A DNA stretch of 64,000 nucleotides from Gemmatimonadales bacterium (GTDB taxonomy: Bacteria > Gemmatimonadota > Gemmatimonadetes > Gemmatimonadales > GWC2-71-9). Positions 1,120-19,093 of this stretch are shown here, piece by piece; position 1 is the first letter of the stretch, and each line of letters begins with the position of its first letter. A program made the position numbers and the translations under genes. Below the pieces are notes generated by a model. That model was given only the letters and a program-made list of their open reading frames with translations. It did not search any database and was not told the origin of the DNA. The stretch lies in the NCBI GenBank assembly GCA_048499805.1, contig JASNZF010000002.1, forward strand, positions 311,882 through 375,881. Reading direction: 5' to 3'.

Positions 1120-2366
1120 CGCTGCGGCACAATGCCCCCCTGCGCGATGCAGACCCGGCGATTGCCAACCTGGTGAACCGGGAGCTGCTCCGGCAGCGTC
1201 ACGGCCTCGAACTGATCGCGAGCGAGAACTTCGCCTCCCGCGCGGTGATCGACGCGATCGGCACCCCCCTCACCAACAAGTACGCCGAGGGCTACCCCGG
1301 CAAGCGGTACTACGGCGGGTGCGAGGTCGTGGACGAGGTGGAGCGGCTGGCGATTGCGCGGGCGCTCCAGCTCTTCGGCGCCGACCACGCCAACGTCCAG
1401 CCCCACGCCGGCGCCCAGGCCAACTTCGCTGCGTTCATGGCGGTGCTGCCTCCGGGGGGATTGCTGCTGGGGATGTCGCTGCCGCATGGCGGCCACCTCT
1501 CCCACGGCCACAGCGTCAACCACAGCGGCAGCATCTGGCGCGCGACCCACTATGGCGTGAACCCGGCCACCGGCCGGATCGACTACGACCAGGTGCGGGA
1601 GCAGGCGCGCGCCGAGCGTCCCGGGCTGATCGTCTGCGGTGGCAGCGCCTATGCCCGGATCATCGACTTCCCGGCCTTCCGGAGCATCGCCGATGAGGTG
1701 GGCGCCACCCTGCTGGTGGACATGTCCCACTTCGCCGGGCTGGTGGCGGGTGGGGTCCACCCCTCGCCGGTGCCCCACGCCCAGATCGTCACCACCACCA
1801 CGCACAAGACCCTGCGGGGCCCGCGCGGCGGCCTGATCCTCTGCGTCGCGGAGCTGGCCAAGGCGATCGACCGATCGGTCTTCCCCGGCACCCAGGGCGG
1901 GCCGCTCGAGCACAGCATCGCCGCCAAGGCCGTCGCCTTCGGCGAGGCGCTGACCCCCGACTTCCGCTCCTACGCCCATCGCGTCGTGGCCAACGCCAAG
2001 CGGCTGGCGCAGGGGTTGACCGATCGCGGGTTCGCAATCGTCTCGGGGGGCACCGACACCCACCTGATGCTGGTGGACCTGCGGCCCAAGAAGCTCACTG
2101 GCAAGGCGGCCGAGGCGCTGCTCGGCGAGGTGGACATCACCGTCAACAAGAACACCATTCCCGACGATCCCGAGTCGCCGTTCGTGACCAGCGGGATCCG
2201 CCTTGGCACCCCGGCGCTCACCACCCGGGGCATGGGGCTGGCCGAGATGGACCGGATCGCCGACCTGGTGGACCGCGCCCTCACCGCCACCGGGGACGGG
2301 GACCGCCAGCGCGTCAAGGCCGAGGTCCGGGCCCTGGCCGACGCGTTTCCGCTCTACGGCGCATGA
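1116..2366 (+). CDS. glyA: Serine hydroxymethyltransferase
   Basis: GTG 1116 overlaps the rpiB stop. Contains [15 protein letters not shown] and [13 protein letters not shown] (PLP-lysine region). The upstream part of track ORF 939..2366 overlaps rpiB and is not coding. Confidence 0.95.
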
Positions 2367-2752
2367 TCGAGCTGCAGTTCTCCCCGGAAGTCCTCGACCG
2401 GATCCGGGCGCGTGGCGATGCCTATCACGAACGGGCCTACCTGTTCGTCCTCGCCAGCATCGAGTTCCTGCAGTCGCGGCTGGCCCAGCGCCGCCATGTC
2501 AGCGGCGAGGAACTGGCCTGGTGCTGCCGGGATTTCGCCATCCGGCAGTTCGGCCCGATGTCGCGCACCGTGCTGGAGCACTGGGGGGTGCGGCGCAGCG
2601 ATGATTTTGGCCGGATCGTGTTCACGCTGGTGGAGGTGGGACTCCTCGTGACCCAGCCCGGGGATCGCGAGGAGGATTTCGCCGGACGCTACGACTTTGC
2701 CGAGGCCTTTGCCGAGGCACATGTCTGGTCCGGACAGCCCGGGCAATGTTGA
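2363..2752 (+). CDS. Conserved hypothetical protein, Minf_1886 (TIGR04138)-like
   Basis: ATGA overlap with the glyA stop. The stretch [52 protein letters not shown] resembles this conserved family, recognised from memory. Confidence 0.6.
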
Positions 2753-2786
2753 CGCGGCGGCGGACGCCGGGAAGGAGCGGTTGCGG

Positions 2787-2984
2787 ATGACGGAACGCAT
2801 CGATTGGCCCCACTGCCAGAAGTGCGATGGCGGCACCCTGATCCCCCTGTCCGACTACGGACGCGACGGGGCACCCATCACCTACAAGGCCTGGGTCTGT
2901 ACCAACCCCGACTGCGGGTTCAACCTCCGGATCGACAATGGAGAGATCAGCTTCGGGCGGACGATCGGGCAGTCCACGAAATGA
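2787..2984 (+). CDS. Small zinc-ribbon protein (65 aa)
   Basis: ATG 2787 is preceded by gaaggag (2771-2777). Two CxxC pairs (CQKC ... CTNPDC). The upstream part of track ORF 2697..2984 overlaps the previous gene. Confidence 0.55.
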   Translation: MTERIDWPHCQKCDGGTLIPLSDYGRDGAPITYKAWVCTNPDCGFNLRIDNGEISFGRTIGQSTK

Positions 2985-3107
2985 GCCGCGCCTGCGGGGG
3001 AGGGGGGAGGGGCGCCGCGGCATCGCGGGGGCTCCCCCTCGGCCGGGCGTGACCGGAGCCCGGCGAACACCCTCATCCGCTCGCAGCCCGCAGCTCCCTC
3101 TCCGCTG

Positions 3108-4664
3108 ATGCCCTCCATTCCCGTCCTTACCCCCGAGCAGGCCGGCCGCTGGGATGCGGCCAGCGAAGCGGCGGGCGTGCCGACCCGCGTTCTGATGGAG
3201 TCGGCGGGCCGGGCCGTGGCCACCGTGCTGGTCGACCGGCTGCCCGCCGCCTGCCGGCAAGGCGTCCTCGTGGCCGCCGGGACCGGCAACAACGGTGGAG
3301 ATGGCTGGGTCCTGGCGCGTGCGCTCCACGCCCTGGGCCTCCCCTGCTGGGTGGCGCCGATGCCGGGCGCCCCCTCGCCGCTGCACGCCAGCGTCGCAGC
3401 CGTGGCGCGCGCGGACGGGGTCCGCGAGGTGGCCCCGGACGGTCCCTGGCCCGCCGCCGGCGTCGTGGTCGATGCGCTCCTCGGTACCGGCGCGCGCGGC
3501 GCACCGCGGGGGCCAGTGGCCGAGGTGATGCACCGGATCGCCGACCTGCGCCTCCCGGTCGTCGCCGTGGACGGTCCCACGGGACTCGACCTGAACGACG
3601 GGGTCTCGCACGACGCGCTTCGCGCCGTCCTCACCATCACCTTCGGGGGATACCGCCGCGGCCACCTGCTCTCCAGGGACGACTGCGGCGACCTGGTGGT
3701 GGTGGACATCGGCTTCACCGCGGCCGCGCCAGAGTGGCCCACACTGGTGGGTGTGGACACGGTCCTTTCCCTCCTCCCGCCGCTGCCGACCCACGCCCAC
3801 AAGGGCACCCGCGGTCGGGTGGTGATCCTCGGTGGCGATGTCGGCATGTCCGGTGCCGCGCGGCTGGCCGGTCGCGCCGCCTTCAGTGCTGGTGCGGGCC
3901 TGGTGCATGTCGTGGCGCCGGCCGGGAGCGTCGCGATCCTCGCCGCGGCGGAGCCCGACCTCCAGACCCTGGTCCAGGATCTGGACGCACCCCTGGGCAC
4001 CCCTGCGGCGGCGCTCCTCGCCAAGGCCGATGCGGTCGTGATCGGGCCCGGACTCGGGCGCAGCCCGGCCCGCGGCGACCTGGTCCTCGAGGCGCTGCGG
4101 GTGGCGCGCCAGGTGGTGCTCGACGCCGATGGACTCACCCTCCTGCAGGGACGCCTCCCGGCCGTTGCCGAGGCCTGCGCCGGCAAGCGGGTCCTGATGA
4201 CCCCGCACCTTGGCGAGTTCCGGGCCCTCTTTCCCGCCGACTCCGCCATGGCGGCGGTGGACCCGTGGGGCTCGGCAGGGCGCGCCGCCGACGCGTCGGG
4301 CGCCACCATCCTCCTCAAGGGGGTGCCCACCGTGGTCGCCGCAGGTGGCGCGACCCCGGTGCTGACGATCGCCGCCGGCAATCCGGGCCTCGCGACCGGC
4401 GGGAGCGGGGATTGCCTGAGCGGGCTCGCGGCCACCTTCCTGGCGCAGGGAATGTCGAGTCGGGACGCCGGGGCCACTGCCGCGCTGGCCCTGGGGGGCA
4501 CCGCGGACCTGGCCGCGCGCCGGACCGGGGCGCGGGCGCTGCGGCCGATGGACCTCCTGGCCAGCCTGCCCGATCTCTGGCGGGAATGGGAGCGTCGGCG
4601 CGAGCAGCGCCCGATGCCGCGGCCGCCGATCCTGCACGAACTGCCCCTGCCGAGGCGCACCTGA
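3108..4664 (+). CDS. nnr: Bifunctional NAD(P)H-hydrate repair enzyme (epimerase / ADP-dependent dehydratase)
   Basis: N-terminal YjeF_N domain (GTGNNGGDG) plus C-terminal carbohydrate-kinase-like domain (HKGTRGRVVILGG, GNPGLATGGSGDCLSG). Confidence 0.9.
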   Translation: MPSIPVLTPEQAGRWDAASEAAGVPTRVLMESAGRAVATVLVDRLPAACRQGVLVAAGTGNNGGDGWVLARALHALGLPCWVAPMPGAPSPLHASVAAVARADGVREVAPDGPWPAAGVVVDALLGTGARGAPRGPVAEVMHRIADLRLPVVAVDGPTGLDLNDGVSHDALRAVLTITFGGYRRGHLLSRDDCGDLVVVDIGFTAAAPEWPTLVGVDTVLSLLPPLPTHAHKGTRGRVVILGGDVGMSGAARLAGRAAFSAGAGLVHVVAPAGSVAILAAAEPDLQTLVQDLDAPLGTPAAALLAKADAVVIGPGLGRSPARGDLVLEALRVARQVVLDADGLTLLQGRLPAVAEACAGKRVLMTPHLGEFRALFPADSAMAAVDPWGSAGRAADASGATILLKGVPTVVAAGGATPVLTIAAGNPGLATGGSGDCLSGLAATFLAQGMSSRDAGATAALALGGTADLAARRTGARALRPMDLLASLPDLWREWERRREQRPMPRPPILHELPLPRRT

Positions 4665-6321: not shown

Positions 6322-8129
<1,808 letters not shown>

Positions 8130-8168
8130 GCCGGAAGGCCCGGACCGATACATTTCAGGGCTGTACTT

Positions 8169-8207
8169 GGCAGGGTAGCTCAGCTGGTTAGAGCACGGCA
8201 CTCATAA
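8169..8207 (+). pseudogene. 5' half of host tRNA-Met(CAU), ending in the anticodon loop (attL side)
   Basis: Carries the acceptor 5' strand, D-arm, anticodon-stem 5' strand cggca and loop ctcataa. Identical to 8321-8348 of the intact tRNA up to position 27. It is followed by non-tRNA AT-rich sequence (tgacgtgcctcatttttgg...) with no T-arm. Confidence 0.8.
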
Positions 8208-8320
8208 TGACGTGCCTCATTTTTGGACGGGTTCTCAACTCTTGTATTCACAATGGGTTGCCCTTAGGTTGATCGCCCCGGTGCTTGGTATGTACCACCG
8301 GCTGTACCATTGCAGTGCTT

Positions 8321-8394
8321 GGCAGGGTAGCTCAGCTGGTTAGAGCACCACACTCATAATGTGGGGGTCGCGGGTTCGAGTCCCGCCCCTGCTA
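8321..8394 (+). tRNA. tRNA-Met (anticodon CAU, elongator-like), intact, element-borne
   Basis: A 74-nt cloverleaf folded by hand: acceptor ggcaggg/ccctgct (G1-U72), D-arm gctc/gagc, anticodon stem ccaca/tgtgg, loop ctCATaa, variable gggtc, T-arm gcggg-ttcgagt-cccgc, discriminator a. No encoded CCA. Confidence 0.93.
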
Positions 8395-8402
8395 TTCCCA
8401 AG

Positions 8403-8429
8403 AAGCCCCTATCCCTCCGGACGGGGCTT
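8403..8429 (+). terminator. Stem-loop immediately downstream of the tRNA
   Basis: aagcccc (8403-8409) pairs with ggggctt (8423-8429) around a 13-nt loop, followed by a T-containing tail tgatgtt. Confidence 0.45.
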
Positions 8430-8476
8430 TGATGTTCTCCACCCGATGTATCCCCCGATCCTGCCCCGGAATCGGG

Positions 8477-8520
8477 CCGGACTTTCGCCCGGACTTTCGG
8501 CCGGTTGTTTCTGGACTTCT
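8477..8520. repeat. Tandem ccggactttcg repeats (2 full copies plus 1 partial) between tRNA and int
   Basis: ccggactttcg occurs at 8477-8487 and 8489-8499. A partial copy, tggacttc, is at 8512-8519. These are possible arm-type integrase or Xis binding sites. Confidence 0.4.
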
Positions 8521-8578
8521 GGCGCCCTGTCATGGGCTATTCCCAGGACTATCCCTGAAAACAGTCCAGCTCCGCCCG

Positions 8579-9700
8579 CTAGGCTCCCGTCGATTCGCCT
8601 GAACGCCGAGCTATGTCTTGGACGGCAGCGATCCGTTCCCAATCGATCATCTCCTGCTCGGTGGGCTGGAATCGCCCGTATACCCGAACTGCCATTGTGG
8701 TATCCGCGTGCCCCAATTGTCGAGCCACGACCTCGAACGAGGCCCCTGCCCGAACTGCACGGACAGCGTAGGTATGTCGAGCATCCTTTAGCTGATAGTC
8801 CTCAATGTCCAACGCCTTGCAGGCTTCTCGATGCTTGTCGCTAGCTGTCCATCGATTGATACCTGGGAATACAGGGGCGTTTGGCGTGAAGAGGGAGATG
8901 TGGCGTTCGACTGTCGGCCAAGCCCAGTCAGCCACTTTGGCGATTCTCTCACGGGCGTGCGTTTTGGTGCCCTTGGCCCAGATTTCACGGCGTACCGTAT
9001 CAAAGTGACGACGCTTCAGACCGATGGCGACTGAGACCTCCATCCCAGTACCATGCAGAAGCGCCGAGATCACATTGTAGGGACGGGGAAGCGCCTCGAC
9101 CAGCCTCAAAACCTCCTCATGTTCCAGGTACCGCATTCTCGGCTTGGCGGGCGGAGGTGCCTTCACCTCTCGCATTGGATTGCGTTCCAGCACCCCCACC
9201 GACTTGAGGTATTCGCAGAAGCCGGAGAGAGCGGCGTGATACTTTCTCTTGGTCGATCTTCCGACGCGGCGCGAGGACAACCATCCAAGTATCCTCTCGT
9301 GGGTTAGCGCCGACCGGGGAAACCGCTTCCCCTCAGGCAACAGTGACCGTACGTAGAGCCTGTAGTGGTCTCTTGTGTCGGGCGCTTTGTGTGCGGCGAC
9401 TACCCGCAACCAGTCCTCTACGTAGCTCTCCAGGTCAACATCTGACAGGCGTTGCCGGAGCCCATCGAGGGTTCCCGTGGTGTACGCGTCGAAAAGCTCA
9501 GGGACGCTTAGAGCACGCTCAGCGATGGGACTCAGGAACTCCCAGCAGCGTTTGCCACTCGGGCCGAGGTCGTCAATCATCCTCCCCATCGCCTTGGCAA
9601 CAGCCTTGTCGCGCGTTCCCGTGGTTCGCTTGGTCCAGATACCGCCGCGAGTTGGGATGCTCACGAACCAAGTGCGCCCCCGAAGGATGATGCTGCTCAT
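8579..9700 (-). CDS. int: Tyrosine recombinase / phage-type integrase
   Basis: Has an N-terminal SAM-like core-binding region. The C-terminal catalytic region has ARHTYAV (Arg II), LGHADTTM (His) and VRVYGRF (Tyr). The Box I position reads TGMEVSV instead of TGxRxxE. ATGA overlap with the upstream xis. Confidence 0.9.
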   Translation of the reverse strand: MSSIILRGRTWFVSIPTRGGIWTKRTTGTRDKAVAKAMGRMIDDLGPSGKRCWEFLSPIAERALSVPELFDAYTTGTLDGLRQRLSDVDLESYVEDWLRVVAAHKAPDTRDHYRLYVRSLLPEGKRFPRSALTHERILGWLSSRRVGRSTKRKYHAALSGFCEYLKSVGVLERNPMREVKAPPPAKPRMRYLEHEEVLRLVEALPRPYNVISALLHGTGMEVSVAIGLKRRHFDTVRREIWAKGTKTHARERIAKVADWAWPTVERHISLFTPNAPVFPGINRWTASDKHREACKALDIEDYQLKDARHTYAVRAVRAGASFEVVARQLGHADTTMAVRVYGRFQPTEQEMIDWERIAAVQDIARRSGESTGA

Positions 9701-9918
9701 GTACCGACCCGGGGCTTAGGATGGGCTAGGTGTTGGTTGGCATGGGCGACCAAGTCGCAGCGGCGGTACCGACGACTCCGACCAAGGCGGACGAACGGAA
9801 TGCCGCTCCCATACAGCCAGCTGGGGGACATCTTGAGGAATCGGGCAGCACCCTTGACCGAGAGGAACTCGTCAGGGCTATTGCCTTCGGAATCGGGATT
9901 GGGCATATTTGAGGGCAT
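9697..9918 (-). CDS. xis: AlpA/excisionase-family HTH DNA-binding protein
   Basis: LSVKGAARFLKMSPSWLYGSGIPFVRLGRSRRYRRCDL matches the HTH_17/AlpA pattern. Translationally coupled to int. Confidence 0.75.
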   Translation of the reverse strand: MPSNMPNPDSEGNSPDEFLSVKGAARFLKMSPSWLYGSGIPFVRLGRSRRYRRCDLVAHANQHLAHPKPRVGT

Positions 9919-9970
9919 AAGGGCTCGGCTCCGGAGGGACTTAGTTCCCCCCTGGTGGTTGACGTCTCTG

Positions 9971-10013
9971 GCGAGTTGCTTGTGTCCCCTCCAAGGTCAC
10001 GCAAGCAACTCGT
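9971..10013. promoter_or_regulatory. 11-bp perfect-stem hairpin between the small acidic ORF and xis
   Basis: cgagttgcttg (9972-9982) is the reverse complement of caagcaactcg (10002-10012), with a 19-nt loop. It could be a terminator for the upstream minus-strand genes or an operator in front of xis-int. Confidence 0.45.
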
Positions 10014-10020
10014 TTCGCTT

Positions 10021-10170
10021 TCACTCGGTCTCGTCGTCCTCGTCCTCTTCGTCGTCTACTGAGTTTGCATCGAGGCCCAACACCTCCCCGATGGAATCGT
10101 AGACTTCTTCCAGCTTCGCCCGATACTCGGCGTTCTCCAACTCAAGCTCCGCCTTGGTCGCCTGTCCCAT
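10021..10170 (-). CDS. Small acidic coiled-coil protein (49 aa), not in the ORF track
   Basis: My own translation: MGQATKAELELENAEYRAKLEEVYDSIGEVLGLDANSVDDEEDEDDETE. ATG is preceded by a strong SD (aaaggaggtgaagaac ATG). It lies 21 nt downstream of the 99-aa HTH gene. Confidence 0.55.
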   Translation of the reverse strand: MGQATKAELELENAEYRAKLEEVYDSIGEVLGLDANSVDDEEDEDDETE

Positions 10171-10191
10171 GTTCTTCACCTCCTTTCGCAT

Positions 10192-10491
10192 TTAGACTTC
10201 GCCTACCAAACGCCGTCCATTTTCCGCGGCAAACTTGCGGAGCCTGGAAACCCGGATCATAGAAACCCCATCCACCTCGTCTGCGAGTAGCCTCCGTGCC
10301 TTCACCCACTGGAATACAGCGACCCGGGAGACTGGGGGGTCGAACATTACGGCGGCCTCAGCTTGGGAGACGAATCCGTTTGCTGGGACAAGGCGGGTAT
10401 AGGTCCGTCCTCGCAAATTCATTTCGAACTCAAAGCCTCCATCAGGGGTCGGAAACGCCTCAAGGCTGTCTTCGGGGCGAGAGTATGCCAT
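10192..10491 (-). CDS. HTH DNA-binding protein (99 aa), probable element regulator
   Basis: VSQAEAAVMFDPPVSRVAVFQWVKARRLLADEVDGVSMIRVSRLRKF looks like an excisionase/MerR-type HTH. SD aggaag sits just upstream of the ATG. Confidence 0.6.
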   Translation of the reverse strand: MAYSRPEDSLEAFPTPDGGFEFEMNLRGRTYTRLVPANGFVSQAEAAVMFDPPVSRVAVFQWVKARRLLADEVDGVSMIRVSRLRKFAAENGRRLVGEV

Positions 10492-10510
10492 GGCTTCCTA
10501 GGGTGGGGGA

Positions 10511-10531
10511 ACTTAACGGCACCCGTTAAGT
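10511..10531. promoter_or_regulatory. 21-bp palindrome in the divergent regulatory region
   Basis: acttaacgg-cac-ccgttaagt has perfect 9-bp arms. It lies between the minus-strand regulator genes and the plus-strand cargo genes. Confidence 0.5.
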
Positions 10532-10752
10532 AACTTAGCAGAGATGGTAAAGAGCGCAAGTCTCCCCCGTTCGTGACCCCCCATGGGCCGAGTTGCATGA
10601 GCTCACCCCGGCGGATTGCGTCTGGGAGAAGCCGGAGGTAGCGCGCTAAGCGCTCCAGATCACGGAGCTCCTCGGCTTGCGAAGGGCTCAATTCTGGCCG
10701 ATGTTCCACCCGACCTAGCTGTGACGCCCCCCCCCGGCCCATAGGACTGAGC

Positions 10753-11688
10753 ATGAATGCCTCCGCCAAGAATAGCTCTGAGGCTGCTGAGGTGCGCATT
10801 GAGGTGCGGTATCGCGGAAAGGCTGTCGATAGTGGGCGAATGTCTGCGGTTGACCTCGGCCCGGCAATCTTTGGGCTGGGGAAGGCGGTGGAGGAAACAG
10901 GTCGCATCCTCTATGGACCTGAGGCAATGGTCCGAGTGGAGGTTGAAGCTCATTTTCGGGCCGCTTCCTTCGGCCTGGATTGCTACGCGGTTAGTGAGTC
11001 TGCGGACTTGCTACTCGGGCTCTCGTGGGAGCAGATCGGTGTGATCGTCGCAGTTCTGGGATTCAACGTTCGGGAGGGAATCAAAGATGTCCTCGGCCTG
11101 CTCCGACGGCAGAACCGCCGTGCGATTGAGAATGTGGTTATCAATGGAGACGTCGTAACTTTCAACTTCCATGGTGATGCGCCAGACCAACTCACCCTAA
11201 AGGAGTACCGCACGCTGACCGACTCCGAGGTCCGTGGAGGCCTGCGCGCGATGCTGTCACCTCTGGAGCGGGAAGGGGTCGACAGTGTTGAGCTGAAAGC
11301 GGACGGTGCGGAACCAGTATTGGTTGGCAAGGAAGACATGCTTCTGTTTGAAGCACCAGCGGGACCCATAGTGGATCAGGCCGTCTCGGTTGACACGGGA
11401 AGGGCCGTCCTAGAAGTTGTTGGCCCGATCTTCAAAGCAGACAACATGTGGCTCTTTTCCCAGGGTGGCAGTGAATTCAAGGCAAACATCGCCGATCGGA
11501 ATTTTCTCCGCGAGGTTGGCTCCCATCGGCTACTATTTGGCGCCGGAGACGCCATCATCGCTGACGTCGAAACCACGACCAATCGGTCAAATGGACGGCT
11601 TTCGTATAGACGGAAGATCCTGAGGGTTCATAAGCACATCCAAGGCGACGGCAGTCACAACCAACTTGATATACTAGATGCTGATTAG
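10753..11688 (+). CDS. Hypothetical protein (311 aa), cargo gene A
   Basis: Long ORF with protein-like composition in the lower-GC island. I recognise no motif. One moderately hydrophobic segment (LLLGLSWEQIGVIVAVLGFNV). Confidence 0.65.
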   Translation: MNASAKNSSEAAEVRIEVRYRGKAVDSGRMSAVDLGPAIFGLGKAVEETGRILYGPEAMVRVEVEAHFRAASFGLDCYAVSESADLLLGLSWEQIGVIVAVLGFNVREGIKDVLGLLRRQNRRAIENVVINGDVVTFNFHGDAPDQLTLKEYRTLTDSEVRGGLRAMLSPLEREGVDSVELKADGAEPVLVGKEDMLLFEAPAGPIVDQAVSVDTGRAVLEVVGPIFKADNMWLFSQGGSEFKANIADRNFLREVGSHRLLFGAGDAIIADVETTTNRSNGRLSYRRKILRVHKHIQGDGSHNQLDILDAD

Positions 11689-11762
11689 GGAGTCTCCTGG
11701 TCTGGTTGCCTTGGCAGCGCTGCCACAATCGACCGTGCGCCAAATGTGAAAAGAGGGCGTGC

Positions 11763-12749
11763 ATGACGACGATTGACCTGCAGCGAATGCCGCGAACGGA
11801 GTGGCACCGCATATCGTACTTGCTTGGCCCAGCTATTCCCGATGTGCTGGGGCTCTCTGCAGAGTGGGTCCAGGAGAACTATCCGGCAAGAGATGCATTG
11901 GCGCTCTGTATTGAGTTTCTCAAGCAAGACTTGGTTGACGCGGTTCCAGCCGACCTTGATAGCCTTGGGCGACTCTGGTACTACCCTTGGGTCCAGGCCG
12001 AGTACGAGCTTGAGCTGTCGCTCGCGTACGCTCTCATGTCGTTACATCGAGCTGCATATGATCACCAGCGCAGAGGCCTGGAACTTGTTGCCGTTGGCTC
12101 GTACTTCATTTCGGAGCATGTTACGGAGGAGCAGGCGCATGCGTGGCGCGGCGCGAAGGAACCGACACCATACCTAACGAGGGCGATAGATCGGTTGTCG
12201 CGCACCGGGTTCCCAGCGGAGTTGGAAAGGAAGATCGGTTGGGTGGGGAGGCTAAAGGATCAATATTGGGCTCTCTCCGACATCGCGCATGTCCGTGGGA
12301 CTGAGAATGCCCTTGATGTGATTCAGCCGAGTACTGTCTATTTGGATGGCCTCCCCATGCCACTGCTCCACCCCAAGGCGCTAGCAAGAACGCTCGATTC
12401 ATACAGGGTCGTTGCCCAGAATGTTGCCCTGCTGCTCGTGGCGACGAACCCTGTTCTTGCCCTACCCCTTCCGATGGACGAGAAGTTTGGGCTACACGGG
12501 CCTGTCTCGGGGTTCTTTCAGGAGTACTCAGTTGATCGATTGAGCAAGGTCATCGGCGAGCCTCTTTGGTCAGCGGTAAGCGCAGCAGCCGAGGCGGACC
12601 CCACTGCGAGCTCTCTGCGAGAATCGATTGAGAGTCTTCCGGACTTGACCGAAGCTGAGTTCAAGCAACAAGTCGAGGAGGAGCGCCTTACATGGGATGC
12701 TTCCAGTCGGCCGCCAGCTGATGGGCAAGCGGAGGAGGGGGGCGGGTGA
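11763..12749 (+). CDS. Hypothetical alpha-helical protein (328 aa), cargo gene B; possible HEPN-like R-x4-H motif
   Basis: ATG 11763 is preferred; track ORF starts at TTG 11706. Helix-rich composition. SLHRAAYDHQRRG gives R96-x4-H101 counted from ATG 11763. Acidic C-terminal tail. Confidence 0.65.
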   Translation: MTTIDLQRMPRTEWHRISYLLGPAIPDVLGLSAEWVQENYPARDALALCIEFLKQDLVDAVPADLDSLGRLWYYPWVQAEYELELSLAYALMSLHRAAYDHQRRGLELVAVGSYFISEHVTEEQAHAWRGAKEPTPYLTRAIDRLSRTGFPAELERKIGWVGRLKDQYWALSDIAHVRGTENALDVIQPSTVYLDGLPMPLLHPKALARTLDSYRVVAQNVALLLVATNPVLALPLPMDEKFGLHGPVSGFFQEYSVDRLSKVIGEPLWSAVSAAAEADPTASSLRESIESLPDLTEAEFKQQVEEERLTWDASSRPPADGQAEEGGG

Positions 12750-13064
12750 AGGTGGTGTGCCCGACTGAAGCGGCCGCCCTGAAGTGCAAGAGTCTCAGTT
12801 GATGATGCCCCTCATGAAGAACGTCGGCACTTGCGAGAGGAAGTAGAGAATTGATGTGGCTGGCAAGCCCCTGGGGGCCCCACAGGGAGAGCAGCCCCAA
12901 TGGCAGGGACCAAGGGACCAACGCGTGGTAGGCCGTTCGGCTTATGGCCAGGATTGCTCAATCACGAAAAGCACTAACTGTCTCAGGGCAAGACCCCGCG
13001 GCGCTGGCTGAGGGGCATCCGTACCAACTTCCACCTCCTTTGAGCTTCAGAGCGGGAATCATCT

Positions 13065-15941
13065 ATGTCTCAGAAGGTCGATAGGCTGAAGGCGTTTGTT
13101 GAATATGTTGGCCTTCTCAGCGGAGACGAAAAGGGGGAGGCGCAAGTTTTCTGCGACCGATTGTTTCAGGGTTTTGGCCATGCAGGGTACAAGGAAGCTG
13201 GGGCCACCCTAGAGTTTCGCGTCCGGAGGGCAACGGGAACCGGATTCGCGGATCTGGTCTGGCCAGGGCGGCTGCTGCTTGAGATGAAGAAACGGGGAGA
13301 AAAGCTTGAACTGCATTACCAGCAGGCGTTTGACTATTGGGTTAGGGCCGTTCCCAATCGCCCCCGCTTCGTGGTTCTTTGCAACTTCGATACCTGCTGG
13401 ATCTATGACTTTGATAGGCAGATCGATGAGCCCGTAGACATCGTCCATGTTGTCGACTTCCCGACTCGCTACCTTGCTTTGAACTTCCTTTTCCCGGAGG
13501 CCCCGGAGCCCGTATTCGGGAATGATCGTGTAGGAGTAACTCGAGAGACGGCAGGCAAGGTTGCTGAAGTGTTCGGCTCCTTGGTCAAGCGTGGAGGCGA
13601 CAGGGTCAAAGCTCAACGGTTCATCCTTCAGTCTGTTGTCGCGATGTTTGCTGAAGACATGGATCTATTGCCGAAGGGCACAATCTATAGAATCGTTGAG
13701 GACTGCAAGAGCGGGGCAAGTAGCTACGATCTGTTTGGCGGGCTCTTTCGACAGATGAACAGTAGGGCGCCCGCACCTGAGGGCAGATACAAGGGCATTC
13801 CCTATTTCAATGGCGGGCTCTTCGAGGTAGTTGAACCAGCGCAGCTGTCGCAGCGTGAGCTGGGGTATCTTGGCGAAGCAGCCGCGGAAGATTGGGCAAA
13901 GGTCAACCCGGCGATTTTCGGAACGCTCTTCCAGCGGAGCATGGACGCCGATGCGCGCCATGCCCAAGGAGCTCACTATACATCTGAGGCGGATGTCCTG
14001 CGCGTCGTTCAGCCCACCATCGTGCGGCCGTGGCAAGAACGTATTGCTGCGGCAAACACGATGAAGGAATTAATGGCAATCAGAACCCAGATGCTCACTT
14101 ATCGGGTTCTCGATCCCGCCTGCGGTAGTGGCAATTTCCTGTACGTGGCATATAGGGAGTTAGCCAAGTTGGAGCTCCAGGCGTTGCTAAAGATGCGGAG
14201 TCTGGTGTCGCCGAAGGAGTTCACAAGGCAGGTCAAGACTCTTTCACTCGTCAGTCCGCGCCAATTCCACGGTGTCGACGTCGACGGGTTCGGCCTTGAA
14301 CTGGCAAAGGTTACGCTGATGCTCGCCAAGAAGCTCGCCTTGGACGAGGCCGTGCAGGTCCTTGAGCGGGAGCAAGTGGACCTAGATCTTCATGAAGATC
14401 ATGCTCTGCCTCTGGATAACCTTGATGCAAACTTTATTCAAGGCGACGCTCTGTTTCTTTCCTGGCCTGTGGCTGACGCGATCATCGGGAATCCGCCGTT
14501 TCAAAGCAAGAACAAGATGCAAGCGGAGTTCGGAAAGGCATATGTCAACAGGGTCCGGAAGCTCTACCCCGAGATTCCAGGACGCGCTGACTACTGCGTC
14601 TACTGGCTACGACGTGCGCATGATGAGCTAGGGCCTGGTATGAGGGCAGGACTGGTCGGTACCAATACTATCCGCCAAAACTACAGTCGCGAAGGTGGGC
14701 TCGACTACATCGTATCAACAGGGGGTACGATCACAGAAGCTGTTGCGACTCAAGTGTGGTCGGGCGAGGCCGTCGTCCATGTGTCAATTGTAAATTGGGT
14801 TAAGGGGGTACAACCGGGCAAGAAGCGCCTGTTCCGGCAGATTGGGGATCGACGAGACTCTCCTTGGGAGATGGCTGAGGTCGATGAGATCAATGCCTCT
14901 CTTTCCTTCGGTGTCGACACTACCGGCGTGGGGACTGTCGCTGTCAGCGCAAAGGCTGGGGGGTGCTACCAAGGACAAACGCACGGTCACAAAGGGTTTC
15001 TTTTGTCGAGGGCGGAAGCCGACGTTGAGCGCGCTGCAAATGCGAATGCGTCGGAGGTCCTATTCCCATACATGACTGCGGACGACCTGCTCGGTGAGCC
15101 AGACTCCAGGCCGACGAGATGCGTTATTGACTTTGGAAACAGCGATTTGCTGGAGTGTGGGAAATTCCCAAGGCTCCTGAGGCGCATCGAGGAGAGTGTC
15201 CTCCCGACGCGCCAGGAGGCGGCACAGAGGGAAAGTGCTCGCAATGAGGAGGCACTAGCTGATGATGCAGAGGGTAGGACCAACAAGGATCATGAAGCGG
15301 CGCTGGGAAGGTGGTGGCAGTTGTTTAGGCGTCGGGCGGAGATGCTCGCCGCGATCAGGGCTATTGACCGTTACATCGTTTGCGGGAGGGTCACGCGACG
15401 CCCTATCTTCGAGTTTGTCTGCGCTTCGGTAAATCCGAATGATGCCTTAATGGTCTTCCCCTATAGGGATGACTATTCGTTCGGCATTTTGCAGTCGGGT
15501 GTCCACTGGGCGTGGTTTACGGATAGGTGTTCGACGATGAAAGCGGATTGGCGCTACACGTCCAATTCCGTGTTTGATACGTTTCCTTGGCCGCAAATGC
15601 CGTCGCCGAAGGCGGTGGCGGACGTGATTGCTGCCGCAGTTGAGGTGCGCACCAAGCGTCGTATGCTAATGAAGAAGCATAAACTCTCGCTGCGAGAGCT
15701 CTATCGGGCGATGGACAAGCCTGGCAAACATGACCTGGGCGCTGCGCATGCAGCCCTGGATGCAGCCGTGTATCGGGCGTACGGGTGGGGGAAGAAAGTG
15801 AATATTCTCGGCGCCCTTGTAGAGTTGAACCAAGTGCTGATTGCCAGAGAGCAGAAGGGGCAGGCTGTGCGTGGTCCAGGGTGGCCGCTCGCGGCGAATG
15901 CGCTGAAGGGATCTGTCACGAAGGATTGCATAGGCGGCTAG
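13065..15941 (+). CDS. MmeI-family type IIL (IIG) single-chain restriction endonuclease / N6-adenine DNA methyltransferase
   Basis: N-terminal PD-(D/E)xK motif with MmeI spacing (GFADLVWPGRLLLEMKKRG, i.e. D63-x9-E73-x-K75). SAM motif I VLDPACGSGNFL and motif IV IIGNPPFQ. Size of 958 aa matches this family. Confidence 0.85.
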   Translation: MSQKVDRLKAFVEYVGLLSGDEKGEAQVFCDRLFQGFGHAGYKEAGATLEFRVRRATGTGFADLVWPGRLLLEMKKRGEKLELHYQQAFDYWVRAVPNRPRFVVLCNFDTCWIYDFDRQIDEPVDIVHVVDFPTRYLALNFLFPEAPEPVFGNDRVGVTRETAGKVAEVFGSLVKRGGDRVKAQRFILQSVVAMFAEDMDLLPKGTIYRIVEDCKSGASSYDLFGGLFRQMNSRAPAPEGRYKGIPYFNGGLFEVVEPAQLSQRELGYLGEAAAEDWAKVNPAIFGTLFQRSMDADARHAQGAHYTSEADVLRVVQPTIVRPWQERIAAANTMKELMAIRTQMLTYRVLDPACGSGNFLYVAYRELAKLELQALLKMRSLVSPKEFTRQVKTLSLVSPRQFHGVDVDGFGLELAKVTLMLAKKLALDEAVQVLEREQVDLDLHEDHALPLDNLDANFIQGDALFLSWPVADAIIGNPPFQSKNKMQAEFGKAYVNRVRKLYPEIPGRADYCVYWLRRAHDELGPGMRAGLVGTNTIRQNYSREGGLDYIVSTGGTITEAVATQVWSGEAVVHVSIVNWVKGVQPGKKRLFRQIGDRRDSPWEMAEVDEINASLSFGVDTTGVGTVAVSAKAGGCYQGQTHGHKGFLLSRAEADVERAANANASEVLFPYMTADDLLGEPDSRPTRCVIDFGNSDLLECGKFPRLLRRIEESVLPTRQEAAQRESARNEEALADDAEGRTNKDHEAALGRWWQLFRRRAEMLAAIRAIDRYIVCGRVTRRPIFEFVCASVNPNDALMVFPYRDDYSFGILQSGVHWAWFTDRCSTMKADWRYTSNSVFDTFPWPQMPSPKAVADVIAAAVEVRTKRRMLMKKHKLSLRELYRAMDKPGKHDLGAAHAALDAAVYRAYGWGKKVNILGALVELNQVLIAREQKGQAVRGPGWPLAANALKGSVTKDCIGG

Positions 15942-16110
15942 GCGATAAGATGCCACCTACAAAGGCAGGATTTGGTATGGGTACTGAGGCAGGGCGAGTT
16001 GTGTCAGCCATTCTCGTTGTTCAACGCGCACGTGAGGCACTTGTGTCTTGTGCACGCGGCAATAGAGCGCGGTACTCGCGCATCGGGCGAGTCGTGGCAG
16101 CGGAGTTACG

Positions 16111-17235
16111 GTGAGTGGGCCGGTCGTGCTGTTGGACAAGTCAGTCTTTCAAGCATTGTCGTACCGTGAACACGTCGCGTTGAATCGACATTTCTTCGTT
16201 GGTGTACCTCCCATTCTAGTATTTGAGGTCCTCGGTGATCTCGCGAAGGTCCCGCGAGGAGGAAAGTCGCCACCAGAGAAGGTGGCAGAGTTGTCCAAGA
16301 AGTTTTTTGGAAGCGGAGGCCCGATCATTATGAACTGGCGGGTTCTTTGCATTCAAGCGCTACTTGGAGCCAACGTGCCAATGACTGGTCAAATTGTACC
16401 TGACAATTGGACGACTACACCGGATGGGCAGGGTGTGATGATTGACCTGTCCCCAATGAACGAAGCTATTCGACGATGGCAGAGGGCCGCGTTCGCCACG
16501 TGGGAAGGCGAGTATTCCACGCGTTGGCGAACGGAGACAGCTTCTCTGAGCTTCGGCTCCTTGGAGGGTGTACTACGGCAGAACGCGTTCATCATTCCGC
16601 CTCCTCCGTCGCCAGATGCTCTGATGGTTGTTGTAGATGAGGTTCTTGCCACGCCAGCTGCTCAAGAGTTGTTACTAACATGGATTGTCGGGCAAGTGCG
16701 TCCCAGTGCCGTCGAGAAGGAACACATCGCCTCACGCTGGAACCAAGGGAGTGACCGGAGGCTGGTCACTTTTGCCCCCTACGCGCACCACTGTATGCGA
16801 GCATTGGTGGCGCTCATCGCGGCTGTACGGCACAAGATGCTGCGCTGGGAGAGTACGCTCTATCTTGACCTCCAGTACCTGTTTTATCTTCCGTTCTGCA
16901 ACGTCTTGTTTTCCGAGGATCGGTCACATCGAACTCTCGCTCCAGGGCTATTGAGAGCAGACCAGGCGTTTGCCCGACTTGAACCACTTAAAGCTGACCT
17001 AAGGCGACTGAGCGACATTGCGGAGAAGTTGACCCCAGACGAGGCACGACGGAGGAGCTTTTCCCATAACTCCTACCCAGTACCAGCTGCTAACTCAATT
17101 GTTTGGGGCCTATGGCGGCGCTATTGCTCCCCGTGGAGTCCGAGAATGGTGAACGTTGCCTCGCAACTGCCTCCGGAGGAGAAGGCGCTCGCGATAGCAG
17201 AAGCTAGCGCTCTTTTTGCGCCCTTCCAGTCGTGA
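16111..17235 (+). CDS. Hypothetical protein (374 aa), cargo gene D; N-terminal PIN-like pattern
   Basis: GTG start is preceded by ggag. VVLLDKSVFQAL ... ILVFEVLGDL ... NVLFSEDRSH resembles the acidic-residue pattern of PIN-like nucleases with a large insertion; this domain call is inference. The 3' end overlaps rep by 126 nt. Confidence 0.6.
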   Translation: MSGPVVLLDKSVFQALSYREHVALNRHFFVGVPPILVFEVLGDLAKVPRGGKSPPEKVAELSKKFFGSGGPIIMNWRVLCIQALLGANVPMTGQIVPDNWTTTPDGQGVMIDLSPMNEAIRRWQRAAFATWEGEYSTRWRTETASLSFGSLEGVLRQNAFIIPPPPSPDALMVVVDEVLATPAAQELLLTWIVGQVRPSAVEKEHIASRWNQGSDRRLVTFAPYAHHCMRALVALIAAVRHKMLRWESTLYLDLQYLFYLPFCNVLFSEDRSHRTLAPGLLRADQAFARLEPLKADLRRLSDIAEKLTPDEARRRSFSHNSYPVPAANSIVWGLWRRYCSPWSPRMVNVASQLPPEEKALAIAEASALFAPFQS

Positions 17236-18420
17236 TGCACCTTTGCCAGGAGCAGTCAAAGCGGCAATCGCTTTCGCAATTGCATCAGAGGGGACATAGC
17301 CAGTCAGGGCCACCCCCGTGCGGCCATCAATCCAATCGTGAAATGGCTGATGCCATTCCCATCGCACGGCCTCGCCGTAGCGGACAGGTGAAACCGTATT
17401 GCCATCGGTGCCGATTGTAGCGTCCTCGTCGTCCTTGGCGTCACAGTGAATCCGAAAGCCCATAGGCTGGAAAACCCGCCTGCCTTTCATCGCGCGAAAG
17501 ATCACGTCCAGGTTCGCCGGTGCGATTGGCTCAGGGCAAGAGCCTGGGAGGCGTGTTAGTAGCTTAGTGAAATACTTGAATAGCTCAAACAGGCTGCCTG
17601 GATCAGTCGCGCGGATGTCCTGCGCCTCTCGCATGGCATGTGGCCAAGCACGTAGCCAGCGTCTGACCAGTGCCTCAGCCTGAGCTTTGTCCGCCACGAC
17701 AATATGAAAATGTGGGTGATAGTCATCGCGTCGTCGATTGTAGGTGCACTCTAGCTTGCGCAAAGCGCGAAACGGTAGCCCATCCGTGCGCCTTATTGCT
17801 CTGCCTGTAGAGGTTATCACCTTTAGCATGCGCTGAATCGTTGAGGGCAACATCGTCCTACAGACATTCGGGATTGTCAGGGTGACGAAATGGGCGTGGT
17901 GCCATCTGCTGAGTTCTGGCATGTACCGATTTATTGACCGCGCAGTCCGCACTCGATTGCAGACCATGCACCATCTTGCTCCACAATATTTGCCCCTCAG
18001 GGTGCCTGACTCATCTTGATCGAGCCGCCCAGCGCAGTACACGGTATTGCGATAGCTCAGCTCCAGCGGTGACCTCAGTTCGGCCAAGCGCACCGCCAGA
18101 GGTAGGCTGAAATACTTGGCCCGCGCTCGCTTGACCAACGTTCCCTTGGCGTCACCATCTGGCTTTTGGCAGGGTTGTGCTAACGTATCAAGGGGCGGGG
18201 GCTGCGCCCCCGCCGCTACGCTCGCCCGTTCCGGGCTCGCTTCCACGCGCCCTGCGGGCGCGTGGGGAGCCTTCGGCTCCTTGGCTTCCCACGATGTCGC
18301 TTGGCCGGCATTGGAGGGCCCTAGCGGGCCTCTTGCGCCCTGGGCGGCCCTCCGGGTGGGCTGGGAGCCCCACAGACTCCCCCTTCCCGATCCGGCCTCG
18401 GTAGGGGCGCTCGGCGGCAC
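17110..18420 (-). CDS. rep: Rolling-circle replication initiator, pC194/pUB110 (Rep_1)-type HUH protein; true start probably TTG at 18138
   Basis: Zinc-finger-like CGARWCMVCNRVR, HUH motif YHPHFHIVVAD, and catalytic FELFKYFTK (Glu-x3-Tyr as in pC194 RepA). The N-terminal 94 codons of the track ORF are Pro/Gly/Ala-rich and span hairpins. TTG 18138 is in frame with aaggga upstream. Confidence 0.85.
   Translation of the reverse strand: MPPSAPTEAGSGRGSLWGSQPTRRAAQGARGPLGPSNAGQATSWEAKEPKAPHAPAGRVEASPERASVAAGAQPPPLDTLAQPCQKPDGDAKGTLVKRARAKYFSLPLAVRLAELRSPLELSYRNTVYCAGRLDQDESGTLRGKYCGARWCMVCNRVRTARSINRYMPELSRWHHAHFVTLTIPNVCRTMLPSTIQRMLKVITSTGRAIRRTDGLPFRALRKLECTYNRRRDDYHPHFHIVVADKAQAEALVRRWLRAWPHAMREAQDIRATDPGSLFELFKYFTKLLTRLPGSCPEPIAPANLDVIFRAMKGRRVFQPMGFRIHCDAKDDEDATIGTDGNTVSPVRYGEAVRWEWHQPFHDWIDGRTGVALTGYVPSDAIAKAIAALTAPGKGASRLEGRKKSASFCYRERLLLRRQLRGNVHHSRTPRGAIAPP
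18185..18280 (-). promoter_or_regulatory. Candidate double-strand origin: CTTGATA nick-site heptamer plus three consecutive GC hairpins
   Basis: On the rep strand, cttgatac corresponds to + strand coordinates 18185-18192. Hairpins: ggcgggggc-tgc-gcccccgcc (18194-18214), cacgcgccc-tgc-gggcgcgtg (18244-18264), ggagcc-ttc-ggctcc (18266-18280). All lie just upstream of the TTG 18138 start. Confidence 0.5.
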
Positions 18421-18546
18421 GGCACCAGGATCCCGATGACATGTACCACCAGGTGTACCAGAAGTGGTGTAGCGTGGTGTAGAACCAGGATGTCTGGTGC
18501 TAGGCTTTGTGCGGGGTGGGACGGTGCCGACTGGCCTTGTCCGGCC

Positions 18547-18588
18547 CTCATAATGCCGGGGTCGCGGGTTCGAGTCCCGCCCCTGCTA
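18547..18588 (+). pseudogene. 3' half of host tRNA-Met(CAU), from anticodon loop to discriminator (attR side)
   Basis: Carries loop ctcataa, stem 3' strand tgccg, variable gggtc, T-arm and acceptor 3' strand. The tgccg strand pairs 5/5 with cggca at 8196-8200. The last 32 nt are identical to 8364-8395. Confidence 0.8.
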
Positions 18589-18589
18589 T

Positions 18590-18683
18590 GGGAGCGAGAA
18601 GTGGGAAGCGAGAAGGGAGCAGTGCACTCCCGGAGTCGCAAACCCGACTTCTCACTTCTTGCTTCTTGCTTCTTGCTTCTCCC
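18590..18683. repeat. Purine-rich / pyrimidine-rich heptamer inverted repeat immediately after the tRNA 3' end
   Basis: Left arm is gggagcgagaagt gggaagcgagaag (18590-18615). Right arm is five tandem heptamers cttctca cttcttg cttcttg cttcttg cttctcc (18648-18682). The arms can pair, with G-U pairs, as a long hairpin. Confidence 0.6.
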
Positions 18684-19093
18684 GCCTTGCTTTCGCCATG
18701 CCCCTCTGGCTCTCCACCGGACTCCTGCGGGCCTTCGCCGGGTTCGAGAAGGGGACCCCAGCTACTACCTCGGCAAGCACCCCTCTCACGCCAAGCTGGC
18801 GATCTGCATCCTGGTCGTTGCCCCGGAGATCATGCCGATGGCCACCCTGGTGCGGGGGCGCCTGAGTCTGCATCGCGGCCAGCCGCTGGTGGCCGACCGC
18901 GCCCGGGCCCTGCCCGTTGTGGGCGTCGTCCAGGTGATCCTCGTGGTCGTGTTGCTCCTTTTCGCCGCCGCCATGGCGCGCGGCACCGGGAGCTGACCCG
19001 GCACTTTCATCCCGGTATCATCGATTCGTCATTCGGCCGTTCCTACCTTTGGGGTGGAGGCGGGGTGCCAGCCCCCGCCCCGAAGGAGTCGAC

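Follow-up and report, generated by a model that had tools for sequence, protein, structure and literature searches.

What becomes of a tRNA gene whose two halves lie 10.3 kb apart, and what is the role of the complete tRNA gene that lies between them? We investigated this question in a 64,000-nucleotide stretch of DNA from a Gemmatimonadales bacterium (hereafter the window), in which a tRNA-Met(CAU) gene is interrupted by a 10,346-bp insert. Very probably, the insert is an integrative plasmid-like element that breaks tRNA-Met at the anticodon loop and brings its own replacement. Three segments related to tRNA-Met had been noticed in a first-pass annotation made from the sequence alone, and we found all three, as well as the two recombination cores described below, exactly where it had placed them. 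P1 (8169–8207, + strand) comprises the acceptor 5' strand, the D arm, the anticodon-stem strand cggca and the loop ctcataa, and then runs into non-tRNA sequence (tgacgtgcctcattttt...). P3 (18547–18588, + strand) starts with the loop ctcataa and continues through the stem strand tgccg, the variable region, the T arm and the acceptor 3' strand to the discriminator base. P2 (8321–8394, + strand) is a complete tRNA-Met(CAU) with the anticodon stem ccaca/tgtgg; it is the sole tRNA called by ARAGORN across the window and scores 72.3 bits with the Rfam tRNA model. In their local context, neither P1 nor P3 is detected as a tRNA by ARAGORN or by an Rfam E-value search. Joined in silico (8169–8207+18554–18588), they give a 74-nt tRNA-Met recognized by ARAGORN, which is identical to P2 at 70 of 74 positions; the differences are restricted to positions 29, 30, 42 and 43 and correspond to two compensatory base pairs in the anticodon stem.

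We established the identity of the host and of its native gene from the left flank (6556–8129, + strand), which encodes an enolase (6556–7836; Pfam Enolase_N/C) and a DivIC/FtsB-like septum formation initiator (~7833–8129; Pfam DivIC). Using the enolase as a query against species-representative genomes, we placed the host in the Gemmatimonadota, order Gemmatimonadales. A tRNA-Met is found downstream of eno-divIC in ~45 Gemmatimonadota genomes, and the anticodon stem is cggca/tgccg in 33 of the 37 elongator-type genes of these relatives; the stem of P2 was seen in none of them (0/37), so that the relatives without the island carry at this locus the cggca/tgccg gene and never the ccaca/tgtgg one. 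P1 is the same as the 5' half, and P3 the same as the 3' half, of the intact tRNA of relatives (L008, L012, L013 and others for P1; L numbers are our handles for the contigs and loci compared). In the closest of them, L008 (enolase 94% identical), the sequence of the intact tRNA matches the P1+P3 join at 100% identity and obtains 70.8 bits with the Rfam tRNA model; the join thus passes both tRNA models. In addition, L005, whose enolase protein is identical and whose left flank shares 99% identity with that of the window, reads through the junction without interruption (...cggcactcataatgccgggg, read as ...gagcacggcactcataatgccgggg). Because the cggca/tgccg gene occupies this locus in relatives, because that of L008 is identical to the join and because L005 reads through, P1+P3 is, on this comparative evidence, the native host elongator tRNA-Met(CAU) gene, as the first-pass annotation had proposed; the conditions that it had named as refuting this were all checked, and none of them applied. 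That annotation had also described the distant halves as still co-varying. The pairing of cggca with tgccg is real and not due to chance, since the join is a gene conserved in dozens of relatives; the word co-vary nevertheless overstates it, the halves being two parts of one conserved gene.

Two further observations were made at the eno-divIC locus. In the Gemmatimonadaceae (L031–L067; for example L031 14500–14722 and L032 11628–11843) it carries a tandem, an initiator tRNA-fMet followed 60–190 nt further on by an elongator tRNA-Met, while in the closer relatives of the window (L008–L023) only the elongator is found. In L008, the region that follows the intact tRNA (1713–4359) has a lower G+C content and no BLAST match to the right flank of the window, and may represent another island that occupies this tRNA.

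Where in the tRNA gene did the insertion occur? The attL core (8196–8212, + strand; cggcActcataatgAcg) reads cggca ctcataa tgacg, that is, the host left arm, the overlap region and the element right arm, and the attR core (18542–18558, + strand; cggcCctcataatgCcg) reads cggcc ctcataa tgccg, that is, the element left arm, the overlap region and the host right arm. The two cores match at 15 of 17 positions, 9 of them contiguous (ctcataatg), and the mismatches lie on either side of ctcataatg, implying that strand exchange took place inside it; the same mismatch pattern is found in the related elements L092, L093, L100 and L109. Thus, judging from these junctions, attB is cggca-ctcataa-tgccg, a perfect stem that corresponds to the anticodon stem-loop, and attP is cggcc-ctcataa-tgacg. 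Insertion at the anticodon stem-loop was already the conclusion of the first-pass annotation; this class of site was reportedly named the anticodon-loop sublocation by Williams in 2002. The recombination itself is something that we infer from the junctions. Everything between the cores was likewise correctly attributed to an inserted element with integrase (int), excisionase (xis) and replication (rep) genes, in agreement with the domain matches detailed below and with the G+C content, which drops from 0.67–0.77 outside to 0.55–0.61 across ~8000–18000. The element supplies no new tRNA 3' half at attL either, the sequence tgacgtgcctcattttt that follows the loop of P1 being unrelated to tRNA.

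We then delimited the arms of the attachment site. The P' arm (8208–8320, + strand) contains a repeat pair (ATGTACCACCGGCTGTACCA) at 8290–8309, and the P arm (18421–18546, + strand) a matching one (ATGTACCACCAGGTGTACCA) at 18441–18460, both found by repeat search and by alignment of four elements and conforming to the consensus ATGTACCACC(G/A)G(C/G)TGTACCA. In the four aligned elements, the pair is kept at equivalent distances from the core in both arms, and in L100 GTACCA is changed to GAACCA in both arms together. Such a co-change is expected of arm-type integrase-binding sites, which these repeat pairs putatively are. Since the arm repeats match on both sides and change together, the segment 8208–8320 and P2 lie inside the element; P2 begins 11 bp past the P' arm-type sites and is separated by 184 bp from the end of int. 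Precise excision is predicted to yield an attP junction reading ...ccttgtccggccctcataatgacgtgcctcat... and an attB joined to the right flank reading ...cggcactcataatgccggggtcgcgggttcgagtcccgcccctgctatgggagcgag.... We also noticed within the P' arm a block of ~48 nt (aactcttgtattcacaatgggttgcccttaggttgatcgccccggtg; window 8250–8288, L092 11469–11507) that is near-identical in the two elements while the surrounding arm has diverged; it is a candidate promoter for the element tRNA or a candidate binding site for an accessory protein.

What, then, is P2? Downstream of it lies a G+C-rich hairpin ending in a T-rich tail (8399–8436, + strand; RNA fold −16.3 kcal/mol), a likely intrinsic terminator, and analogous hairpins of different sequences follow the own tRNA of five related elements. 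Because P2 lies inside the element, is equipped with a terminator, is kept in all six members of the family that do not restore the host gene and is absent from relatives that restore it, we consider it very likely to be the element's replacement for the tRNA-Met that the element breaks. P2 would then be expressed and needed by the cell, and the element would be mobile today. The first-pass annotation had concluded that the host gene is left as two dead halves; this holds insofar as the halves are not tRNAs in their local context, and falls short as an account of the outcome, as it missed the role of P2. A gene conversion between P1 and P2, considered on account of a D-loop variant that they share in the window and in L092, was rejected, P1 and the own tRNA differing at this position in L093.

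We assessed whether this layout is specific to the window by collecting homologues of the integrase, of which 276 were found, mostly on Gemmatimonadota metagenome contigs. Five of the elements examined share with the window the order host 5' half, P' arm of ~110 nt, own tRNA-Met with its terminator, int, xis, cargo, Rep_1, P arm and host 3' half: L092 (integrase 78% identical to that of the window, own tRNA stem ccaca/tgtgg), L105 (71%, ccaca/tgtgg), L093 (70%, cggca/tgctg), L109 (68%, cggca/tgctg) and L100 (68%, tggca/tgcca). Their inserts measure 7.9–10.2 kb, and their hosts and samples differ; in the case of L092, the insertion lies at the same eno-divIC locus in another host. The hybrid attL core of the window is also present in L092, L093, L100 and L109, the right-hand pentamer being tgccg in L105, and the attR of the related elements reads cggcY ctcataa tgccg at the equivalent place. 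In contrast, L102 (64%), L103 (55%), L031 and L045 (52%) and L099 (48%) lie beside a single intact tRNA-Met at the host position and have no extra tRNA; at the far end of L102, the classical repeat is present and extends from the anticodon loop as far as the 3' end. Hence, non-restoring elements carry their own tRNA and restoring ones do not, without exception in this sample, in which two loci were assigned to neither type: L094, whose own tRNA has the same stem as the host and whose contig begins 87 nt upstream, and L108, whose contig begins inside the tRNA. A metagenome scan with the integrase returned 5 loci only, none of the non-restoring type.

Taken as a mechanism, the integrase of the plasmid-like element would bring about recombination between a short core in attP and the anticodon stem-loop of the host tRNA-Met. 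As attP contains no tRNA 3' half, neither junction would rebuild the gene: the host 5' half would be left at attL as P1 and the host 3' half displaced by 10.3 kb to attR as P3, both non-functional, and P2 would supply the lost tRNA-Met function. Int and Xis would reunite P1 with P3 through precise excision, and the Rep_1 protein would replicate the excised circle. This proposal starts from what is established, namely the anatomy of the locus, the identity of P1+P3 as the host gene, the location of P2 in the element and the recurrence of the layout across the family, and it is supported by an experimental precedent in mycobacteriophages (PMC10865867). Several points weigh against it. A sigma-70 consensus scan of 8050–8650 revealed no promoter near P1 or P2, although this consensus may not suit the phylum; transcription of P2 could possibly start at the host tRNA promoter and continue through the 113-nt P' arm, which has no terminator. 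The copy number of elongator tRNA-Met in the host could be read only within the 64-kb window, which contains one intact tRNA, so that a further copy elsewhere may make P2 dispensable. No single contig contains the empty site together with both flanks: L005 ends 8 nt past the junction, the right flank of L008 is non-syntenic, and L088, which carries the right-flank gene, begins inside the T arm. Lastly, no excised circular attP junction was found, an exact-match scan of viral contigs giving 0 matches for the predicted attP; a scan of the same kind for the P2 anticodon-arm sequence also gave 0 matches.

Could the integration be simply destructive, with another elongator tRNA-Met elsewhere in the host and P2 an incidental cargo or a relic? 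The restriction of the tRNA-Met count to the window and the lack of a detected promoter for P2 would both fit such a scenario. Nevertheless, a complete, foldable and terminator-equipped tRNA-Met stands at the same position in 6/6 non-restoring elements, despite integrases down to 68% identical and wholly different cargo, and is missing from the tRNA-restoring relatives; in phages, the same all-or-none pattern reflects necessity, as demonstrated by experiment (PMC10865867, Table 2). We therefore regard a destructive integration as improbable. Still less probable, in our view, is a classical island, in which P2 would be the host tRNA rebuilt at attL with a 3' half from the element and P1 an older leftover or a duplication. 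Such an island would explain the 43-nt direct repeat of 95% identity formed by P2 and P3 from the anticodon loop to the 3' end, as well as the position of int, which adjoins P2 in the usual orientation, and tandem tRNA-Met genes ~150 nt apart do exist at this locus in Gemmatimonadaceae. These tandems, however, consist of a tRNA-fMet and a cggca/tgccg elongator, not of two elongators, and thus do not explain the P1/P2 pair; the ccaca/tgtgg stem occurs at the locus in 0/37 relatives, as reported above. Moreover, the host flank leads straight into P1, and in L005 and L008 into an intact cggca/tgccg gene, and the arm-type site upstream of P2 matches the arm at the far end of the element. In L092 and L109, the own tRNA and the host 3' half at attR also have different T stems (in L092, gcggg for the own tRNA versus gtggg for the host half), showing for L092 that these are two separate tRNA genes.

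The remaining two alternatives appear to us to have a negligible chance of being correct. In one, the split gene would still function, its halves being transcribed apart and joined in trans as in Nanoarchaeum, a possibility evoked by the position of the split in the anticodon loop and by the perfect cloverleaf that the halves form together. The complementarity between trailer and leader that characterizes the split tRNA genes of Nanoarchaeum was not observed: the duplex formed by the 60-nt stretches that follow P1 and precede P3 has an energy of −27.6 kcal/mol, versus a mean of −32.4 for shuffled sequences (z=+1.0). These flanks are instead attachment-site arms with putative integrase-binding repeats, and a complete replacement gene is present; we know of no bacterial machinery for the trans-splicing of tRNA halves. 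In the other, the arrangement would be an assembly artefact created by repeated tRNA segments, and k=31 Logan contigs do break exactly at the tRNA repeats (L002–L005, L088 and L110). Yet independent assemblies contain the attL junction (L001 from JGI and L111 from Logan) and the attR junction (L110, which is 100% identical to window 8366–18576). In addition, the layout is continuous from host flank to host flank in large-k JGI and ENA assemblies (L092 and L105), and the NCBI contig L100 spans attL to attR.

Breaking a host tRNA gene and replacing it with an element-borne copy is a strategy that has been described for phages as tRNA-dependent lysogeny (Guerrero-Bustamante & Hatfull, mBio 2024, PMC10865867), so that the finding is not as new as the first-pass annotation took it to be. 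In the actinobacteriophages concerned (Fionnbharth/K4, Cluster L, Gaia and others), a tyrosine integrase acts on an 8–17 bp common core in a host tRNA, neither junction rebuilds the tRNA, and a cognate phage tRNA is required for viable integration, while sister phages that restore the tRNA do so without an own copy (PMC10865867). Possible further cases are the Lactobacillus johnsonii prophage Lj965 (noted in PMC10865867) and some Sinorhizobium prophages (PMC12429752). The window element resembles these phages in that a tyrosine integrase gene and arm-type sites accompany a short core inside a host tRNA (here the 9 contiguous and 15/17 matching positions given above), that no functional tRNA is present at attL or attR, that the cognate tRNA is carried by the element, and that related integrases split into restoring ones without a tRNA and non-restoring ones with a tRNA. 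It differs from them in its carrier, which is not a temperate phage but a Rep_1 plasmid-like island of 7.9–10.3 kb that carries defence cargo and lacks virion and lysis genes, in the host phylum, here Gemmatimonadota, and in the target, here an elongator tRNA-Met. As far as its sequence allows it to be classified, the element thus shares four of the defining features of tRNA-dependent lysogeny and is no temperate phage; it would work like such a system without being a strict member of it. The position of the replacement gene differs as well: in the window it directly adjoins the P' arm and int, with which it makes up a compact attP-tRNA-int-xis cassette, whereas the tRNA overlaps an unrelated gene elsewhere in the Fionnbharth genome and is located in a tRNA-gene region, apart from the integration cassette, in Cluster L (PMC10865867).

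The locus also shares features with two other systems. Like classical tRNA islands (Islander, PMC4383910), it has as attB a symmetrical anticodon stem-loop with the crossover in the 7-nt loop between inverted stem arms, its int adjoins a tRNA, and a displaced 3' fragment marks the far end; in classical islands, however, attP contains the 3' part of the tRNA and the gene is regenerated at attL, as is the case in L102 but not in the window element. Like the integrative and conjugative elements of actinomycetes (AICEs) such as pSAM2 (PMC2440964), it measures ~10 kb, integrates site-specifically into a tRNA gene, encodes a rolling-circle-type replication protein and has a rep-xis-int-attP module in which int reads towards attP. 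In contrast to AICEs, it belongs to another phylum and no FtsK/Tra-like gene was detected in it, and where AICEs restore the tRNA through a 43–58-bp identity segment, it carries a whole tRNA gene. A full-text literature search, which was not exhaustive, yielded no report of the break-and-replace strategy in plasmid-like elements or in Gemmatimonadota. The strategy has so far been described only for temperate phages, and both the non-phage carrier and the phylum are new.

The substitutions that distinguish P2 from the host gene raise an additional question, as all four are compensatory and none falls outside the stem that provides the core sites of the integrase. The host stem cggca/tgccg is kept in 0/6 tRNAs of non-restoring elements versus 33/37 host genes (Fisher p=3e-5, without correction for common ancestry and with only three distinct variants). 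We tentatively raise the idea, which we think has a rather small chance of being right, that the element tRNA was recoded so that it cannot act as a second attB. Plasmid-borne tRNAs have been suspected as secondary attB sites by Hatfull's group (PMC10865867), which makes a pressure towards such recoding plausible. If true, recoding would prevent self-targeting and tandem insertion and would hide the only working tRNA-Met gene of the cell from competing elements of the family, the host gene being meanwhile held as two halves that only excision can re-join. Against it, the own tRNA of L093 and L109 is a single base off attB, in one core arm, and the host stem is retained in L094, a locus of uncertain class.

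Should the break-and-replace explanation be true, this strategy would not be peculiar to actinobacteriophages and would also operate in small non-viral integrative plasmids or defence islands of a soil phylum that has received little study. Programs that detect islands by a regenerated tRNA and a displaced 3' fragment would then misplace the boundaries of such islands or miss them, and genome annotation would count the tRNA of the element as one of the host's. The attP-tRNA-int-xis cassette of ~1.7 kb would offer a template for Gemmatimonadota integration vectors, in parallel with the engineered mycobacterial plasmids that need a phage tRNA, and the restoring and non-restoring members, with integrases 48–78% identical, would form a series in which the evolution of one type into the other could be studied.

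Finally, we examined the gene content of the element. The tyrosine integrase (8579–9700, − strand, 373 aa) matches Pfam PF00589 (E=1.9e-10) and phrog_1 of the PHROG collection (E=3e-45). The start of its gene is overlapped by that of an excisionase-like HTH_17 protein (9697–9918, − strand, 73 aa; Pfam PF12728, E=6.4e-5, 23.6 bits, below the curated cut-off of 27), and an HTH_17 protein is also encoded upstream of int in L092, L093, L094, L100, L102 and L105. At the int-distal end lies a gene for a Rep_1 rolling-circle replication initiator (17110–18420, − strand; Pfam PF01446, E=3.5e-11), as in L092, L093, L094, L100 and L102. The cargo includes a candidate defence protein of the PDC-S42 family (10753–11688, + strand; PADLOC PDLC05015, E=2.6e-48; phrog_3243) and an MmeI-like type IIG restriction-modification enzyme of 958 aa (13065–15941, + strand; Pfam MmeI_N, MmeI_hel, MmeI_Mtase and MmeI_TRD; PADLOC REase_MTase_IIG, 1390 bits). 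Among the open reading frames of the element there were no PHROG structural, packaging or lysis matches, the remaining content consisting of unknown open reading frames, and no Tra/FtsK domain was detected in any of them with Pfam, PHROGs or PADLOC. Searches of annotated phage and plasmid collections returned only distant relatives of Int and Rep (24–31% identical), the best phage match being 31% to an integrase. The most distant phage relatives of Int still detectable (24% identity) are P22-family integrases, those of Salmonella phages L and ST64T, and the match list in the phage collection also holds 21 Mycobacterium and 11 Gordonia phages. Integrases of the P22 family also target an anticodon-loop site in a tRNA gene.

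Across the family, the backbone (rep, small open reading frames, xis, int and tRNA) is constant while the cargo is exchanged (L093, L094, L100, L102, L105, L108 and L109). In this cargo, a type ISP restriction enzyme accompanies TIR/ThsB-like (Thoeris-like) genes, a methyltransferase accompanies GmrSD, a type I restriction-modification system accompanies Mrr, and a DUF1156 methylase accompanies an SMC/AAA-like protein; a type IIG enzyme, a RES-domain toxin and a mer operon also belong to it. The element family thus behaves as a small mobile defence and resistance island.

Other observations concern the surroundings of the tRNA-Met gene. Right after P3, the window contains a very long imperfect hairpin (18589–18690; cttgcttcttgcttcttgcttc) with a stem of ~26 bp, an energy of −52 kcal/mol and GAGAAG/CTTCTT-type repeats, which gave weak, sub-threshold matches to Rfam microRNA models; it is probably the terminator of the host tRNA, though unusually large. 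In L100 (GCA_016853205.1, JACXTT010006650.1), a second tRNA-Met 5' half (cggca ctcataa ggcgg...) is located 4.9 kb upstream of the attL half, and the region concerned (~8160–13150) carries between the two 5' halves 2-Hacid_dh, tRNA_edit and redoxin genes as well as a 218-aa integrase fragment (40% identical) reading towards the second 5' half; a tandem island with an attP that provides the tRNA 5' half, not the 3' half, is a possible explanation. Immediately 3' of tRNA-Met, a motif (t)ttgtaagt / ttcaagtaa is found in L011, L012, L031, L042, L043, L045, L097, L099 and L102, and also follows the tRNA of L094. In several of the genomes that have this motif, an integrase related to that of the window (48–64% identical) is encoded downstream, which suggests that classical tRNA-restoring relatives commonly occupy this tRNA-Met.

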